DNA from: Escherichia coli
GTDB taxonomy: Bacteria; Pseudomonadota; Gammaproteobacteria; Enterobacterales; Enterobacteriaceae
Assembly (NCBI RefSeq): GCF_017348835.2
Contig: NZ_CP071375.1
DNA length: 64,000 nucleotides
Direction: 5' to 3' (one strand)
Shown: positions 12,104 through 28,100 of the stretch, piece by piece
Layout of the letters: each line of letters begins with the position of its first letter
Numbering within the stretch: position 1 is the first letter of the stretch
Position numbers and translations under genes: made by a program
Notes under the pieces: generated by a model
What the model was told of the DNA's origin: nothing
Databases searched by the model: none
The model's input: only the letters and a program-made list of their open reading frames with translations

Positions 12104-13519
12104 GTGAAACAAAGCACTATTGCACTGGCACTCTTACCGTTACTGTTTACCCCTGTGACAAAAGCCCGGACACCAGAAATGCCTGTTCTGGAAAACCGGG
12201 CTGCTCAGGGCGATATTACTGCACCCGGCGGTGCTCGCCGCTTAACGGCTGATCAGACCGCCGCTCTGCGTGATTCTCTTAGCGATAAACCTGCAAAAAA
12301 TATTATTTTGCTGATTGGCGATGGGATGGGGGATTCGGAAATTACTGCCGCACGTAATTATGCCGAAGGTGCGGGCGGCTTTTTTAAAGGTATCGATGCC
12401 TTACCGCTTACCGGGCAATACACTCACTATGCGCTGAATAAAAAAACCGGCAAACCGGACTACGTCACCGACTCGGCTGCATCAGCAACCGCCTGGTCAA
12501 CCGGTGTCAAAACCTATAACGGCGCGCTGGGCGTCGATATTCACGAAAAAGATCACCCAACGATTCTGGAAATGGCAAAAGCCGCAGGTCTGGCGACCGG
12601 TAACGTTTCTACCGCAGAGTTGCAGGATGCCACGCCCGCTGCGCTGGTGGCACATGTGACCTCGCGCAAATGCTACGGTCCGAGCGCGACCAGTGAAAAA
12701 TGTCCGGGTAACGCTCTGGAAAAAGGCGGAAAAGGATCGATTACCGAACAGCTGCTTAACGCTCGTGCCGACGTTACGCTTGGCGGCGGCGCAAAAACCT
12801 TTGCTGAAACGGCAACCGCTGGTGAATGGCAGGGAAAAACGCTGCGTGAACAGGCACAGGCGCGTGGTTATCAGTTGGTGAGCGATGCTGCCTCACTGAA
12901 TTCGGTGACGGAAGCGAATCAGCAAAAACCCCTGCTTGGCCTGTTTGCTGACGGCAATATGCCAGTGCGCTGGCTAGGACCGAAAGCAACGTACCATGGC
13001 AATATCGATAAGCCCGCAGTCACCTGTACGCCTAATCCGCAATGTAATGACAGTGTACCAACCCTGGCGCAGATGACCGACAAAGCCATTGAATTGTTGA
13101 GTAAAAATGAGAAAGGCTTTTTCCTGCAAGTTGAAGGTGCGTCAATCGATAAACAGGATCATGCTGCGAATCCTTGTGGGCAAATTGGCGAGACGGTCGA
13201 TCTCGATGAAGCCGTACAACGGGCGCTGGAATTCGCTAAAAAGGAGGGTAACACGCTGGTCATAGTCACCGCTGATCACGCCCACGCCAGCCAGATTGTT
13301 GCGCCGGATACCAAAGCTCCGGGCCTCACCCAGGCGCTAAATACCAAAGATGGCGCAGTGATGGTGATGAGTTACGGGAACTCCGAAGAGGATTCACAAG
13401 AACATACAGGCAGTCAGTTGCGTATTGCGGCGTATGGCCCGCATGCCGCCAATGTTGTTGGACTGACCGACCAGACCGATCTCTTCTACACCATGAAAGC
13501 CGCTCTGGGGCTGAAATAA
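12104..13519 (+). CDS. phoA: Alkaline phosphatase
   Basis: GTG start ([21 protein letters not shown] signal peptide) chosen over the upstream ATG of the ORF track; active-site DSAASAT motif. Confidence 0.95.
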
Positions 13520-16120: not shown

Positions 16121-16579
16121 ATGACAATTTGGGTGGATGCCGACGCGTGTCCCAATGTAATTAAAGAGATTTTGTATCGCGCGGCGGAACGTATGCAGAT
16201 GCCGCTGGTACTGGTAGCAAACCAGAGTTTACGCGTGCCGCCATCGCGATTTATTCGTACGCTGCGCGTCGCGGCAGGTTTCGACGTTGCCGATAACGAA
16301 ATTGTCCGGCAGTGTGAAGCGGGCGATTTGGTGATCACCGCAGATATACCTTTGGCTGCTGAAGCCATCGAGAAAGGCGCTGCGGCGCTTAATCCGCGCG
16401 GTGAACGTTACACGCCAGCGACCATTCGTGAGCGCCTGACGATGCGCGATTTTATGGATACCTTACGTGCCAGTGGGATCCAGACCGGCGGACCAGATAG
16501 CCTTTCACAACGTGACCGCCAGGCCTTTGCCGCGGAGCTGGAGAAGTGGTGGCTGGAAGTGCAACGTAGTCGTGGCTAA
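16121..16579 (+). CDS. yaiI: UPF0178 protein YaiI
   Basis: Start at [18 protein letters not shown] (152 aa), internal Met of the longer ORF. Confidence 0.85.
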
Positions 16580-16580
16580 A

Positions 16581-16598
16581 TGTAATTTATTATTTACA
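16581..16598 (+). promoter_or_regulatory. TyrR box upstream of aroL
   Basis: TGTAATTTATTATTTACA fits TGTAAA-N6-TTTACA. Confidence 0.65.
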
Positions 16599-16656
16599 CT
16601 TCATTCTTGAATATTTATTGGTATAGTAAGGGATGTATTGAGATTTTCACTTTAAG

Positions 16657-16674
16657 TGGAATTTTTTCTTTACA
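16657..16674 (+). promoter_or_regulatory. Second (weaker) TyrR box upstream of aroL
   Basis: TGGAATTTTTTCTTTACA; partial match to the TyrR box consensus. Confidence 0.5.
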
Positions 16675-16683
16675 ATCGAAATT

Positions 16684-16692
16684 GTACTAGTT
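16684..16692 (+). promoter_or_regulatory. Candidate TrpR operator core upstream of aroL
   Basis: GTACTAGTT (CTAG core) between the TyrR boxes and the aroL start; aroL is TyrR- and TrpR-regulated. Confidence 0.5.
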
Positions 16693-16761
16693 TGATGGTA
16701 TGATCGCTATTCTCATGACACCGGCTTTCGCCGCATTGCGACCTATTGGGGAAAACCCACG

Positions 16762-17286
16762 ATGACACAACCTCTTTTTCTGATCGGGCCTCGGGGCTGT
16801 GGTAAAACAACGGTCGGAATGGCCCTTGCCGATTCGCTTAACCGTCGGTTTGTCGATACCGATCAGTGGTTGCAATCACAGCTCAATATGACGGTCGCGG
16901 AGATCGTCGAAAGGGAAGAGTGGGCGGGATTTCGCGCCAGAGAAACGGCGGCGCTGGAAGCGGTAACTGCGCCATCCACCGTTATCGCTACAGGCGGCGG
17001 CATTATTCTGACGGAATTTAATCGTCACTTCATGCAAAATAACGGGATCGTGGTTTATTTGTGTGCGCCAGTATCAGTCCTGGTTAACCGACTGCAAGCT
17101 GCACCGGAAGAAGATTTACGGCCAACCTTAACGGGAAAACCGCTGAGCGAAGAAGTTCAGGAAGTGCTGGAAGAACGCGATGCGCTATATCGCGAAGTTG
17201 CGCATATTATCATCGACGCAACAAACGAACCCAGCCAGGTGATTTCTGAAATTCGCAGCGCCCTGGCACAGACGATCAATTGTTGA
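16762..17286 (+). CDS. aroL: Shikimate kinase II
   Basis: 174 aa with Walker [10 protein letters not shown]. Confidence 0.93.
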
Positions 17287-17326
17287 TCTTAGAGCGCCTA
17301 TACTTAACGTTCATCCCGTGAAATAA

Positions 17327-18818: not shown

Positions 18819-18961
18819 TTCCTCGCCTTCCCCTTGAACGGGAGGGCATTTTTCTGAAATATCCTCTCTTTAACCCATAATAATATTTCCTTTGCTGCGA
18901 TTTTTTCAATTTCCGATATATTCATAATTCATCAAGGTTGATATAAATATCATTGAAGATT

Positions 18962-21241
18962 ATGAATAGAATTAATATATTGGTCATCTGTATGGACGTA
19001 TTTTTTATGACTGGCAATGCATGTGCCACAGAGTGGATCAGTAGCGAGGACCTTATCACCTCTGACTTTCATCTTATGACGGCAGATGAGCGCAACGTGG
19101 TTAAAGCGGCAACCGACGATAGTATGGAAGCTGCTTATATGCTAAAAGATAATATCCGCTGGTATTATCATAATGGTGACCTATCATTACCCGCTAACTT
19201 CAGCAATCAAAATAAACTGGTGGTGAACGGTAATTTAACGATTTCCGGCGATTATGATGATTATCTGTCAGGTAATGGTCATCTGATTGTATTAGGTAAT
19301 GTTATTGTCGATAACTTTATTAATCATGATTTCGCGTATGTCAAAGGACAGATGACAGCGAAAGGTTTAGTTTATGCTGATTACAATGATCATAACTTTG
19401 AAGTGATGAAGGGAATTAGTGCGCGAGGCATTATTGTTTCCGATAAAGCAACGCAATTTGAAGTCATTAAAGCTGAATTTTATATCAATGAAGATGGAAG
19501 TGGTGAAGGATATAACTGGGATGAGAATATTCAAAAAGCCTATTCACTGGTGACTGCCGATCTTTATGATCACACTGAAATCGAAACCGATAACATTTCC
19601 AATGCGTATCCTGACTATGATAGCGTCGCAGACAACATCGTTCAGGGTTTACCGCTTTTTCGAGATAAAGCCGCTCCTGAAATTAATGAGAAATTAAAAT
19701 GGATTGAAACGGGGAAACTCGATAATTTCCCAGCGAATAAAATAAAGCATCAAGATCCACTGGTGGCACGTTTTCTGACTCATACAGAGAGTTTATCACC
19801 CGCCGTTATGCTGCAACTGTTACAGCACCCCGATGACCAGACGCGTGAATCGATGGCGCAGTCCTGGCCCGCTCAACAGATGCATTTGCTTACCGATGAA
19901 TTAATTAAAGATGAGGCTGTTGCCAGAGGGCTGGTTAAAAACAGTAATATTTCCGCCGATGTGAATAAAAAATTAATGTCTGTACCCGTCGAGAGCGTAC
20001 AGCTGGAGCAGGCCAGACAGGATAATCTTTCTCCAGATATTGTTGCGTCGTTAAGTCATAGCCCCTTTCTCAGTGTACGCAAGACATTACTCAGCCATTA
20101 CGATTACGCCTGGCTGGTTCCGACTGCAGTGGCCGATGAGTTGATAAATAACGAAGACCCGGAGTTACGTGAAAGAATTACCGGAGCAGATTTAACCGCA
20201 CAACAAGCAGTGATGTTGAGTAAAGATAAATCACTGAAAGTTCGTGAAGCATTAGCCCGGACGCTTACTGAATTAAAAATTACCAAACTGTCAGCAACCC
20301 TGCGTACAGAGGATATTGAACGTATCGCAGAACAAATGTATCTGGATAATAAAGAAAATAAAAATATCGTAAAGGCGTTATTGATAGCGTTGCCGGAGAT
20401 GCGTCAACTGTCTCTGGCAAAAGAAGATGTGCACAATTTGCGCGAAGGTGCGCGTTATCTGACATCGAGGGAAGTGATTAGTTATCTACTGACTCAGCAT
20501 GATATTCCCACCGTCTGGGGTGAGCTGGCACGCGATAAATTATTGCCGCTGGAATATAAGAAACAATTATGGCAACGCACATTAAATTTAATGATGAGCA
20601 AACGGCAAGAAGATCAAGAGCAAGCCTACGAAGTACAGCTGGCGCTGATTGATAATGGTGTTGTTGACGAAGAGATGTTAAATAATGCCATTGATTTACT
20701 GGTTGATTTACCCGCTGAATACCGCTATCGAATGCGTAACCAATTATTTGATAATAAAGATTTATCTTCCGGAATTATCAACAAACTCGATCAACAGTAT
20801 CGCTTCAACTCTGACTGGGCGCTGGCTGTTGTCAGTCTGAAAAATAGCACCCGTAGGCAAAGTGAAAGAGGATTACACCGCTGGAACAGTGAGGATAGCG
20901 ATATTTTTGCGGAACTGGCGACGATAAAAGATAAATCAGATGATGAATGGTGGCGTGCATTGCTGCAAAGTCGCAATGATCATTTGCGCCAAACGGCATT
21001 ACGCAACGCACATACCCCGGCGTCGTTGTTAATGACATTGACTGAGCCTCAGGATCGGTCGCTGGCTATTAATAATCCACAGCTGGCTGCCGATGTGAAA
21101 ACGGCGTGGTTAAAAGAGGATCCATCATTACTCTTATTTGTCGATCAACCCGATCTTTCGCAGTTACGTGATTTAGTGAAAACCGGGGCAACGCGGAAAA
21201 TTCGCAGTGAAGCGCGTCACCGGCTTGAGGAAAAACAATGA
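18962..21241 (+). CDS. Hypothetical large repeat protein (about 759 aa): hydrophobic N-terminus, beta-rich Asn/Gly/Asp region, C-terminal HEAT/LRV-like alpha-helical repeats
   Basis: Long ORF in an AT-rich stretch; ATG at 18962 (ORF track gives TTG at 18953); N-terminus [22 protein letters not shown]; repeated L..L..HPD/SP/DP...R/V...L blocks in the C-terminal two thirds; 4-bp overlap with the next ORF. Confidence 0.8.
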
Positions 21242-25167: not shown

Positions 25168-28100
25168 TTATTTCACTGCAAACGTACTTTCCAGTTTGCT
25201 GTAGCCCAGGCCGTTGATCTTTTTCACTTTGATCTGCACCGGAATACGCTCTTTCATCGCTTCTACGTGGCTAATCACACCGATGGTTTTGCCACTGGCG
25301 TTCAGGGCATCCAGCGCATCAAGGGCGGTATCCAGCGTTTCGCTATCCAGCGTGCCAAAACCTTCATCAAGGAACAGCGAGTCAATACGTGTTTTATGGC
25401 TGACCAGATCCGAAAGCGCCAGCGCCAGCGCCAGACTGACGAGGAAACTTTCGCCGCCAGAAAGGGTACGGGTGTCACGTACCGCATCTGCCTGCCAGGT
25501 ATCAACAACCTCGACTTCCAGCGCCTCGCTGGCTTTGCGCTGTAACAGATAGCGCCCGTGCAGTCGGGTAAGTTGCTGATTAGCGAGATGGACTAAATTA
25601 TCCAGCGTCAGCCCCTGCGCAAACTTGCGGAATTTATCGCCCTCTTTGGAACCTATTAGCGAATTCAGATATCCCCAGTCCTCAACCTGCTGCGTCATTT
25701 GAGCAATTTGCTGCATTAAGGTTTGTTGTTGCTGACGGTTATCTGTATCCTGCTTCAGCTGCTGGCGAATCTCGCCTTGACTCGTGGTGTTCTCACGCAA
25801 TTTTTGGTGAGTTTGCGCTAACTCTTGCTGAATCTGCTCCACCGTCACAGTGAGAGCCAACCCGTCAGGTCGGTGTTGCTGATGCTGTGCCAGCGTTTCT
25901 GCTGTCTGAGTGACCAGCGTTTGCGCCTGACGGCGCTGGTTTTCCAGATTCTGCTTGAGCTGTTCCAGCTGCGTTAGTGTTTGTTCATCCACTAGCGTCG
26001 CAAGGAACGCCTGCTGATCGTCAAAGACGCTGGCCTGTAGCGCGGTGTCAAACTGCGCCTGGGCTTTTTGCAGACTTTGCGCCGCCAGAACATCCTGTTG
26101 CTGTAACGTCTGCTGCTGGCTGTGTAATGCGAGACATTGTTCATGAACCTGCCGCCAGTTTTCCAGCGCCACAGTTTCTTCGCTGTGCGGGAGCTCATCA
26201 CTTTGCGGCAACGTTTCCAGAATCGGCGTCAGCTGCTGAATACGGTTTTGCAGCGCGGTTAATTCGTTCTGGCGTTGCTGCCAGCTCTGCGCTTCTTGCT
26301 GACGTGTCGCCAACCAGCTCTCTTCTTCATCTTCCTGTGGCAATGTCAGTGCATAACCCGTCAATGCCGTTAAGAGTTGCTGCTGGCGTTGTTCAATTTG
26401 CTGTTGATACTGGATAATTTGCTGATTATGCGCGGCAATCTGCCCTTGTAATTCATGCCGTTGGCTGAGTAACCGCAGCTGGCGTTCGTGTTCATCTTGT
26501 GCATCTAGCCACGGTTGAATATCGTCCTGTGGCTGCAAGGTGATATTGAGGCTGGCCGTGACGGCTTGCCATTGTTGAGTAAGTGCCTGCTCATCTTGTC
26601 GGAGGCTTTGCGCTTCGTTTTCATCACGCTGAAGCTGCTTTGTTAAGGCGTCCAGTTGCCCACGTAGCGCCGCACCTTCTTCACCGAGCTTTTTAACTTC
26701 GTTTTCCAGCACCAGTAATCGAGACTGATTAACGCCAGGCTCCAGCGCCTGATACGCCTCGACCGCCGGGTGGCTGGTGGAACCACAAAGTGGACAAGGC
26801 TGACCCGCCTGTAACTGTGCACGTTGAGCTTCCAGCGTTTTGATGCGCGCTTCCTGCTCGCAAATGGTTTTGACATCGGCAAGTTGCTGCGTCTTTTCTT
26901 TATAACGCTGGCGCATTTCGTTAAGTGCGGCATTACGTTGCGTCTGTTCCAGAGTGACATTCTGGATAGTGACCATTAACTGCGCCAGACGTTTTTGTTG
27001 GGGAACAATCTGCCCATGCAGCGCGACCAGGCGCTGACGCAGTGGGCGTTGCTCAGCATGTTGCGCCAGGGCGGTAGCAACTTCATCGGCGGTTAACGTC
27101 AACGTGATCGCCGCAAGCGCATTAAGTTTTTGCTCAGCATGGGTTAACTGTTGCTGCCATTGCCGCAGATGCTCGCGATCGCTGGTTTGTTGGGAGAACT
27201 GCGCACGCCAACCCGCCAGTTCGTTGTTCCACTGACGGAAGCGGTCGTGTTCCTGTAACCAGGTATTCAGGCTTTGTTGCTGCTGCTGTAATTCTGCTGA
27301 CTGCTTCGCCGCGTGGTGGCGAATGCTCGCGCGAAGCGCCATTGTGCCCTGTAAGCGAGTATTTACTTCTTCAATCTGCTGGCGAGTATGCGCCAGCGCC
27401 GCGCTGTGTTCTGCGATGCGTTCCCAGTGCGGACGAAGATTTCGTGCCGGTTGTGCCAGACTGAGCGCCGCCAGTTGAGGTTGCGCTTTTTCTTCTTCGG
27501 CTAACGCCTGTTGCAAGGCCTGCTGACGGCGGCTGGCTTCTTGCTGCAATTCGTCCAGACGCGTTAACCAGTTTAGTGATTGTTGTTCTTGCTGCTGCGC
27601 GGTAAGTAACTGTTTTTCTTCGTCAGTAAGTACCTGCAAACTCGCTGTCAGCGATTGCACTTGTTCCGGCGTGAGCAACGCGACGCCGCTGGCCTGCGCT
27701 TGCAGCTTCACCAGCTCAGTGCGGGCCGATTTGTGCTGCTCAAAAACCATCGCCGAGATTTGCCCGTAGATTTCAGTGCCGGTTAACTCCTCGAGCAATT
27801 CCGCGCGTTCTTTGGGTTTGGCATTCAGGAAGGCAGCAAATTGCCCCTGCGAAAGCAGCATCGAACGGGTGAAGCGCCCGTAATCCAGCCCGGTTAACGT
27901 CGCTGTCAGTTCCAGCTTATCTTTCACTTTGTCGGCGAGAATTTTGCCGTCGGCGCAGCGCGCCAGCTCTACGCGTGGCACCTGCAAATTACCGTCGGGT
28001 TGGTTACGCGCCCGATTCTGGCTCCAGAACGCGCGATACGCTTCACCTTTCACTTCAAACTCCACCTCCGCCAGACATTCAGCGGTATCGCGGGTCATGA

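Follow-up and report, generated by a model that had tools for sequence, protein, structure and literature searches.

The 182-bp spacer between yaiI and aroL is, very probably, the promoter-operator of the E. coli aroL-yaiA-aroM operon, a feature that is already known. Two strong TyrR boxes stand on either side of its main promoter, P1, and a TrpR-type operator lies in the leader that P1 transcribes. The only point at this locus that is possibly new is a second transcription start, that of a candidate promoter P2, which sits on the TrpR operator.

Identity of the aroL control region

The spacer was analyzed within a 64,000-nucleotide stretch of DNA, referred to as the window, whose coordinates are converted to those of NC_000913.3 by adding 389643. 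Its features and those at its borders are as follows.

16577-16579: 3' end of yaiI (stop codon), upstream of the spacer
16581-16598 (K-12 406224-406241), plus strand: strong TyrR box TGTAATTTATTATTTACA, one mismatch to TGTAAA-N6-TTTACA
16600-16605, plus strand: putative -35-like hexamer of P1, TTCATT, with 3/6 matches and a 16-bp spacer, adjoining the TyrR box
16619-16627, plus strand: extended -10 element of P1, TGGTATAGT, whose hexamer occupies -13 to -8; the mapped start follows 8 nt further on
16635, plus strand: transcription start of P1 (G), giving a 127-nt leader; K-12 NC_000913.2 405502, NC_000913.3 406278
16634-16651 (K-12 406277-406294), plus strand: candidate weak TyrR box TGTATTGAGATTTTCACT, four mismatches (8/12 to the consensus), a putative assignment
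16657-16674 (K-12 406300-406317), plus strand: strong TyrR box TGGAATTTTTTCTTTACA, two mismatches
16676-16681, plus strand: -35-like hexamer of candidate P2, TCGAAA, from the promoter scan, with 4/6 matches and a 17-bp spacer; T16676 is invariant in the alignment
16684-16701 (K-12 406327-406344), plus strand: TrpR-type operator GTACTAGTTTGATGGTAT, the top weight-matrix score in the window
16696-16704, plus strand: extended -10 element of candidate P2, TGGTATGAT, with its hexamer TATGAT at -13 to -8, overlapping the right half of the TrpR operator
16711-16712, plus strand: transcription start of candidate P2, giving a leader of ~50 nt, from Cappable-seq and SMRT-Cappable-seq
16762-17286, plus strand: coding sequence of the gene under control, aroL, which specifies shikimate kinase II (174 aa); from the ORF list and from RefSeq, where DNA of the same sequence is annotated

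The aroL ATG is at 16762, and yaiA and aroM follow downstream. A 381-bp query spanning the spacer showed 100% identity to O157:H7 E. coli genomes, where the gene is annotated aroL, and at least 80% of this query was found at 95% identity or more in 5424 of the 5426 complete genomes of E. coli, with yaiI and aroL as the annotation in every case. The wider gene order is also that of O157:H7, and the strain background is O157:H7-like. The original prediction had proposed an alignment to the characterized K-12 aroL operator, and we carried it out: positions 16540-16800 align to K-12 MG1655 gaplessly, with 260 of 261 bases identical. The sole difference, at 16633, is an A here and a G in K-12, and the A also occurs in other Escherichia lineages. 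This position is -2 of P1, 1 nt beyond the candidate weak box, and is not part of either strong box, either -10 element, or the CTAG site. With 260 of 261 bases identical, the K-12 footprints transfer base for base to this strain.

The K-12 aroL promoter-operator is said to have been described by DeFeyter et al. in 1986, Heatwole and Somerville in 1992, and Lawley and Pittard in 1994. The present locus is the same one: it has the genes of K-12 aroL, its TyrR boxes and CTAG site, and also its P1 start, and differs from it by the base at 16633. This O157:H7-like strain therefore carries the K-12 aroL operator unchanged, and control of shikimate kinase II by TyrR and TrpR should work as it does in K-12. 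We see the use of this result mainly in annotation and in strain engineering of the shikimate pathway; otherwise, it is of minor importance.

The main promoter and the TyrR boxes

P1 is an extended -10 promoter with its start at 16635, on which three data sets agree. Its TGGTATAGT agrees with the TGnTAnnnT motif of sigma-70 extended -10 promoters, placed 6-8 nt ahead of a primary 5' end, and the same holds for TGGTATGAT of candidate P2, whose start is found in two data sets. Kim 2012 (Table S1) places the aroL start at NC_000913.2 405502, with 136 reads and a 5' UTR of 127 nt. In Cappable-seq, which takes triphosphate 5' ends only, P1 has an RRS of 4.7 and an enrichment of 6.2, and SMRT-Cappable-seq gives 406277 as the start of the aroL-yaiA-aroM operon, flagged "same" as RegulonDB. 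The second strong TyrR box and the TrpR site sit in the transcribed leader, downstream of this main start. The predicted location of the sites "upstream of aroL" is thus right for the gene but not for the promoter.

We took as TyrR boxes 18-bp palindromes of the form TGTAAA-N6-TTTACA that keep the outer TG...CA, which both strong boxes retain. The original prediction had named two such boxes and a TrpR-type CTAG string within about 180 bp of aroL, and all three strings were found on the plus strand of the region, the boxes beginning 181 nt and 105 nt ahead of the aroL start codon, in the control region of a gene of aromatic amino acid biosynthesis. The range given, 16581-16700, covers the boxes but omits the last base of the 18-bp TrpR-type site, and the candidate weak third box at 16634-16651 had been missed.

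We take TGTAATTTATTATTTACA to be box 3 of the literature, TGGAATTTTTTCTTTACA to be box 1, and TGTATTGAGATTTTCACT to be box 2. Box 3 starts 2 nt past the yaiI stop codon and occupies -54 to -37 of P1, with its center at -45.5. Box 1 covers +23 to +40, with its center at +30.5 of P1 and at -46.5 relative to the P2 start. The P1 start is therefore located between the two strong boxes, whose centers are 76 bp apart. The candidate weak box extends from -1 to +17 of P1, and its center is 23 bp from that of box 1.

A comparable set of boxes is found in the aroF-tyrA operator, which, like aroL, has two strong boxes and one weak box, the distant strong box cooperating with the strong-weak pair. The aroF-tyrA operator has three TyrR boxes and is repressed by tyrosine-dependent TyrR hexamers, as known from the TyrR regulon reviewed by Pittard et al. 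in 2005. Unlike at aroF-tyrA, the strong-weak pair of aroL lies downstream of the main start, the boxes enclose the promoter, and a TrpR site is attached.

The TrpR-type operator

As a TrpR operator we counted an 18-bp near-palindrome of the type GNACTAGTTNACTAGTNC, whose two halves are each centered on CTAG. At aroL, the CTAG 9-mer GTACTAGTT occupies 16684-16692 on the plus strand, and the full site matches the consensus at 9/9 positions in the left half and at 4/9 in the right half, which is the degenerate TGATGGTAT. The site is 27 bp downstream of the leader box TGGAATTTTTTCTTTACA. Using a TrpR weight matrix trained on four K-12 operators (trp, aroH, trpR, and mtr), we obtained rank 1 for 16684-16701 among the 63,983 positions of the window, with a score of 14.3 bits versus 21-25 bits for the training sites. 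The site is thus 7 bits under the weakest canonical TrpR site, and the runner-up, in phoA, comes close at 13.9 bits. The sequence on its own suggests a TrpR site without proving it.

The runner-up, GCACTATTGCACTGGCAC at 12114-12131, lies in codons of the phoA signal peptide and looks like a chance match.

The trp, aroH, trpR, and mtr operators share the GTACTAG half-site with aroL, and each matches it at 10-13 of 18 positions in the 18-bp frame; the aroL site differs from these canonical operators in its degenerate right half. The mtr operator, GTACTCGTGTACTGGTAC, has the TGGTA of its right half in common with aroL. Relative to the curated P1, the aroL site is at +50 to +67, where it does not overlap the core promoter and where a lone repressor is not expected to block initiation. 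Relative to P2, it is at -28 to -11, so that, if P2 is real, it overlaps the -10 element and the spacer, as at trp. Besides aroL, mtr is the other E. coli promoter under both TyrR and TrpR; there, TyrR activates and TrpR dominates, whereas at aroL TyrR represses and dominates (bioRxiv 10.64898/2025.12.20.695731).

Clustering and conservation of the elements

Could the motifs be random matches in an A+T-rich spacer, with no regulatory role in this strain? The window-wide counts would agree with this, since TyrR boxes with at most two mismatches number 3 in the 64-kb window compared with an expectation of 3.1 ± 2.0, and neither the 9-mer GTACTAGTT nor the generic GNACT-N8-AGTNC pattern is enriched in the window. 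The spacer core, moreover, is 75% A+T. As the window-wide counts of TyrR and TrpR motifs are at chance, our argument rests on clustering, on the weight-matrix rank, and on conservation. Two boxes in the 182-bp spacer were obtained in none of 5000 dinucleotide-preserving shuffles and, from the 75% A+T spacer core, in 3 of 5000; any pair of boxes within 100 bp arose in 2 of 200 shuffles of the whole window. It is the pairing of the TyrR boxes, not their window-wide number, that is nonrandom. In addition, at least five genera keep these elements, their sequence as well as their spacing, whereas the flanks drift, and the sequence equals the experimentally studied K-12 region at 260 of 261 positions. 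We consider random matches refuted by the conservation and extremely improbable, and retain the explanation of a functional operator.

Apart from the two strong boxes, the window has a single TyrR-like box with no more than two mismatches, TGTAAGCGAGTATTTACT at 27350-27367; it is inside sbcC and looks like a chance match.

The genome scan with the AroL peptide yielded Escherichia spp., ~18 Citrobacter spp., and one member of the Erwiniaceae, and loci from Salmonella, Enterobacter, Kosakonia, and Intestinirhabdus were added by exact-protein look-up. We calculated column identities from a 20-sequence alignment of Escherichia and Citrobacter, with the following results.

Upstream box TGTAATTTATTATTTACA, arms: 1.00 / 0.98
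P1 -10 element TGGTATAGT: 0.96
Candidate weak box: 0.57-0.67, the background level
Downstream box TGGAATTTTTTCTTTACA, arms: 0.92 / 0.92, versus 0.76 for its 6-bp spacer
CTAG operator, halves: 0.97 / 0.94
P2 -10 element TGGTATGAT: 0.97
DNA between elements: 0.57-0.78

The arms of the strong boxes (0.92-1.00) thus stand out from the box spacers (0.76-0.89) and the flanks (0.57-0.78), a contrast that the weak box does not show. The TTGnTATAGT of P1 is invariant in the 20 sequences, and a neighboring CACTT, near -35, is also conserved. All Escherichia and Citrobacter loci have a box with at most two mismatches at -179 to -183 relative to aroL and a second one, with one to three mismatches, at -104 to -107; CTAG is found at -74 or -75 in all of them but C. 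sedlakii. Salmonella enterica and Intestinirhabdus alba retain the whole layout, with the upstream box at an equal distance, and the downstream box of Salmonella is a perfect TyrR consensus. Both strong boxes and the CTAG block are therefore phylogenetic footprints in Escherichia, Citrobacter, Salmonella, and Intestinirhabdus. The box-to-box center spacing is 74-77 bp in the other genera, compared with 76 bp here, and the spacing from box 1 to the TrpR site is 27-28 bp in every genus with a TrpR site. Kosakonia retains part of the layout, namely the downstream box together with the CTAG site and the -10 element. In Klebsiella and in the Enterobacter cloacae complex, the layout of the aroL operator is rebuilt; a locus of the latter (L045, 646-663) lacks CTAG and carries just one box, TGCAATCATTTCTTTACA, at -55, similar to that of Klebsiella given below.

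For K. pneumoniae, Table S1 of Kim 2012 lists an aroL start at NC_009648 371238, with a 144-nt leader, 3 nt after a TyrR-like box, TGCAATGATAAGTTTACA.

Repression by TyrR and TrpR

Work of Lawley and Pittard from 1994 and of Heatwole and Somerville from 1992 reportedly established that aroL has three TyrR boxes and that two of these, boxes 1 and 3, are essential, in contrast to the dispensable box 2. The same studies are said to have detected phased DNase I hypersensitivity under hexamer-forming conditions, suggesting a loop, as well as a TrpR footprint on the CTAG site and an effect of TrpR only in tyrR+ cells. The lack of conservation of the weak box fits the dispensability reported for box 2, and the anatomy seen here, with P1 between strong boxes whose distance is constant and with a constant TrpR spacing, likewise fits the known looping account. 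An integration host factor (IHF) site has reportedly been proposed for the aroL control region; the IHF consensus WATCAANNNNTTR, allowing at most one mismatch, had no match in 16580-16760.

The looping account can be written out with steps taken from established work on TyrR. TyrR dimers would occupy the two strong boxes flanking P1. With tyrosine and ATP, TyrR would assemble into a hexamer, the weak box over the P1 start would be filled, and the strong boxes would be bridged. This bridge would enclose P1 in a small loop, and the promoter, trapped or occluded, would be shut. Tryptophan-bound TrpR on GTACTAGTTTGATGGTAT would add a modest repression, only when TyrR is present. What we show for aroL is sequence, identity to K-12, conservation, and transcription starts; binding, looping, and the contribution of TrpR are drawn from the literature or deduced.

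The dual repression by TyrR and TrpR expected from the original prediction is supported by the identity of the gene, by the identity to K-12, and by a published report of repression of aroL(-yaiA-aroM) by both regulators in E. coli (PMC5343134). In the same report, regulation of aroL was predicted in 10 Enterobacteriales genomes for TyrR and in only 4 for TrpR. Our loci, such as that of Enterobacter without CTAG and that of C. sedlakii with its loss, agree with TrpR control of aroL in fewer genomes than TyrR control. In a CRISPRi study of 2025, knockdown of tyrR derepressed aroL, whereas knockdown of trpR alone was without effect (bioRxiv 10.64898/2025.12.20.695731), and in a Y. pestis tyrR mutant aroL was up 4.7-fold (PMC4325908). 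TrpR is thus a minor, conditional partner of TyrR at aroL. The low score of the TrpR site with its poor right half, the weak box without conservation, the missing IHF match, and the silence of the trpR knockdown alone count against the known model, which we still regard as highly likely to be correct.

A candidate second promoter on the TrpR operator

P2 was the only consensus promoter match of the promoter scan in 16450-16850, in which P1 was not matched. In Cappable-seq of cells grown in M9 glucose, triphosphate ends define a start at 405579 of NC_000913.2 (window 16712), with an RRS of 7.35 and an enrichment of 3.9, a level similar to that of P1. SMRT-Cappable-seq contains full-length aroL-yaiA transcripts from 406353 of NC_000913.3, as opposed to 406277 for P1. 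These starts raise a reading of the locus that we put forward tentatively and rate as less probable than the looping account: P2 might be a conserved, apparently uncurated promoter starting at 16711/12, the CTAG site would be mainly the operator of P2, and TrpR would act there as a plain steric repressor. The dependence of the TrpR effect on TyrR would then be promoter arithmetic, a switch from P1 to P2, with no need for a contact between TyrR and TrpR. As long as the stronger P1 is open, the TrpR-sensitive P2 would be too small a part of aroL transcription to be measured, and it would show up after TyrR has closed P1.

Conservation speaks for such a promoter. The TGnTATGAT of P2 is conserved at 0.97, the GAT that extends past the operator is invariant, and the element survives in C. 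sedlakii, which has no CTAG. Kosakonia keeps box 1, CTAG, and the -10 element as a module. The geometry of P2 relative to box 1 is also that of P1 relative to box 3, with the -10 hexamer at -13 to -8 and the box center at about -46. An insertion of 4 bp between box 1 and the TrpR site, made by Lawley and Pittard in 1994, reportedly increased repression by tyrosine and abolished the effect of tryptophan. Four extra base pairs there would disrupt the P2 -35 element or stretch its spacer and so kill P2, which would explain both of these phenotypes.

Several observations argue against P2. Kim 2012 gives the P1 start alone for aroL. Both supporting data sets come from one laboratory, and an RRS of 7.35 is weak, with about 1 position in 270 called a transcription start site. 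The start base is a C. Knockdown of trpR in tyrR+ cells, furthermore, did not raise aroL, either in transcripts or with a P_aroL reporter, in the single-cell and reporter data of the 2025 study (bioRxiv 10.64898/2025.12.20.695731). As to its curation, a 2022 preprint names a single, unnumbered "aroLp" while it numbers the promoters of other genes, which suggests that P2 is not curated. Were P2 real, it would offer a simpler account of a 30-year-old apparent synergy between repressors and would add one promoter to the curated aroL map.

The similar geometry of the two promoters also raises the idea that modules 16581-16656 and 16657-16733 are tandem copies of one TyrR-controlled promoter. Both modules have the same layout, with an 18-bp box, ~20 bp, and TGGTAT(A/G)(G/A)T, and the period is ~76 bp. 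The alignment score of their non-box parts, however, was matched by 1002 of 2000 shuffles, with no similarity beyond the box and the -10 element, and among the genera examined we found no outgroup having a single module with flanks alignable to both halves. We judged a tandem duplication very unlikely and dropped it, as there is no likeness outside the motifs and shared functional motifs suffice as an explanation.

One of the 5426 complete genomes, that of E. coli 18AR0366 (NZ_CM132283.1; L048, 1733-2500), carries an IS1 in the aroL control region. Its 9-bp target duplication, TAGTAAGGG, corresponds to window positions 16624-16632, between the -10 element and the start of P1. By this insertion, the -10 element of P1 and the TyrR box upstream of it are parted from all that follows, namely the weak box, box 1, P2, and the TrpR site, which amounts to a natural "P2-only" configuration.

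The aroL leader and neighboring transcription

A search of the leader RNA against Rfam returned nothing at E ≤ 1. The leader contains a hairpin, TCGC-CGCATT-GCGA, at 16728-16741, ~25 nt upstream of the aroL ATG. The corresponding stems are CCGC...GCGG in Citrobacter, CTGCG...CGCAG in Salmonella, and CCTGCA...TGCAGG in Kosakonia, and covariation is weak (3/7 pairs). A GGG/CCC pairing (16748-16758) could mask the aroL Shine-Dalgarno sequence, GGGGAA.

Transcription of the neighboring genes adds further starts. Cappable-seq shows a very strong one at 17311 (K-12 NC_000913.2 406178), in the aroL-yaiA spacer 25 nt upstream of yaiA, with an RRS of 719 versus 5-7 for the aroL starts. Such a start suggests that yaiA is mostly transcribed on its own and not from the aroL promoters. 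Kim 2012 reports a weak yaiA start elsewhere, at 406145 of NC_000913.2 (window 17278). The same source has a weak antisense start on the minus strand at 16673 (NC_000913.2 405540; 4 reads), assigned to proC; it sits in the right arm of TyrR box 1 and is directed toward yaiI. In SMRT-Cappable-seq, read-through from the yaiI promoter (NC_000913.3 405741, window 16098) covers yaiI-aroL-yaiA, and some of these transcripts extend to aroM-ppnP and the next gene. By this read-through, some aroL mRNA may bypass the promoters controlled by TyrR and TrpR.

Downstream of ppnP, the window contains an ORF of 762 aa (18953-21241), for which the RefSeq DUF2773 coding sequence starts 9 nt later (~759 aa). This ORF is intact in only 443 of the 5426 complete E. 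coli genomes; in most genomes, including K-12-like ones, ~18% of it is left as remnants (ykiD and a DUF2773 fragment).
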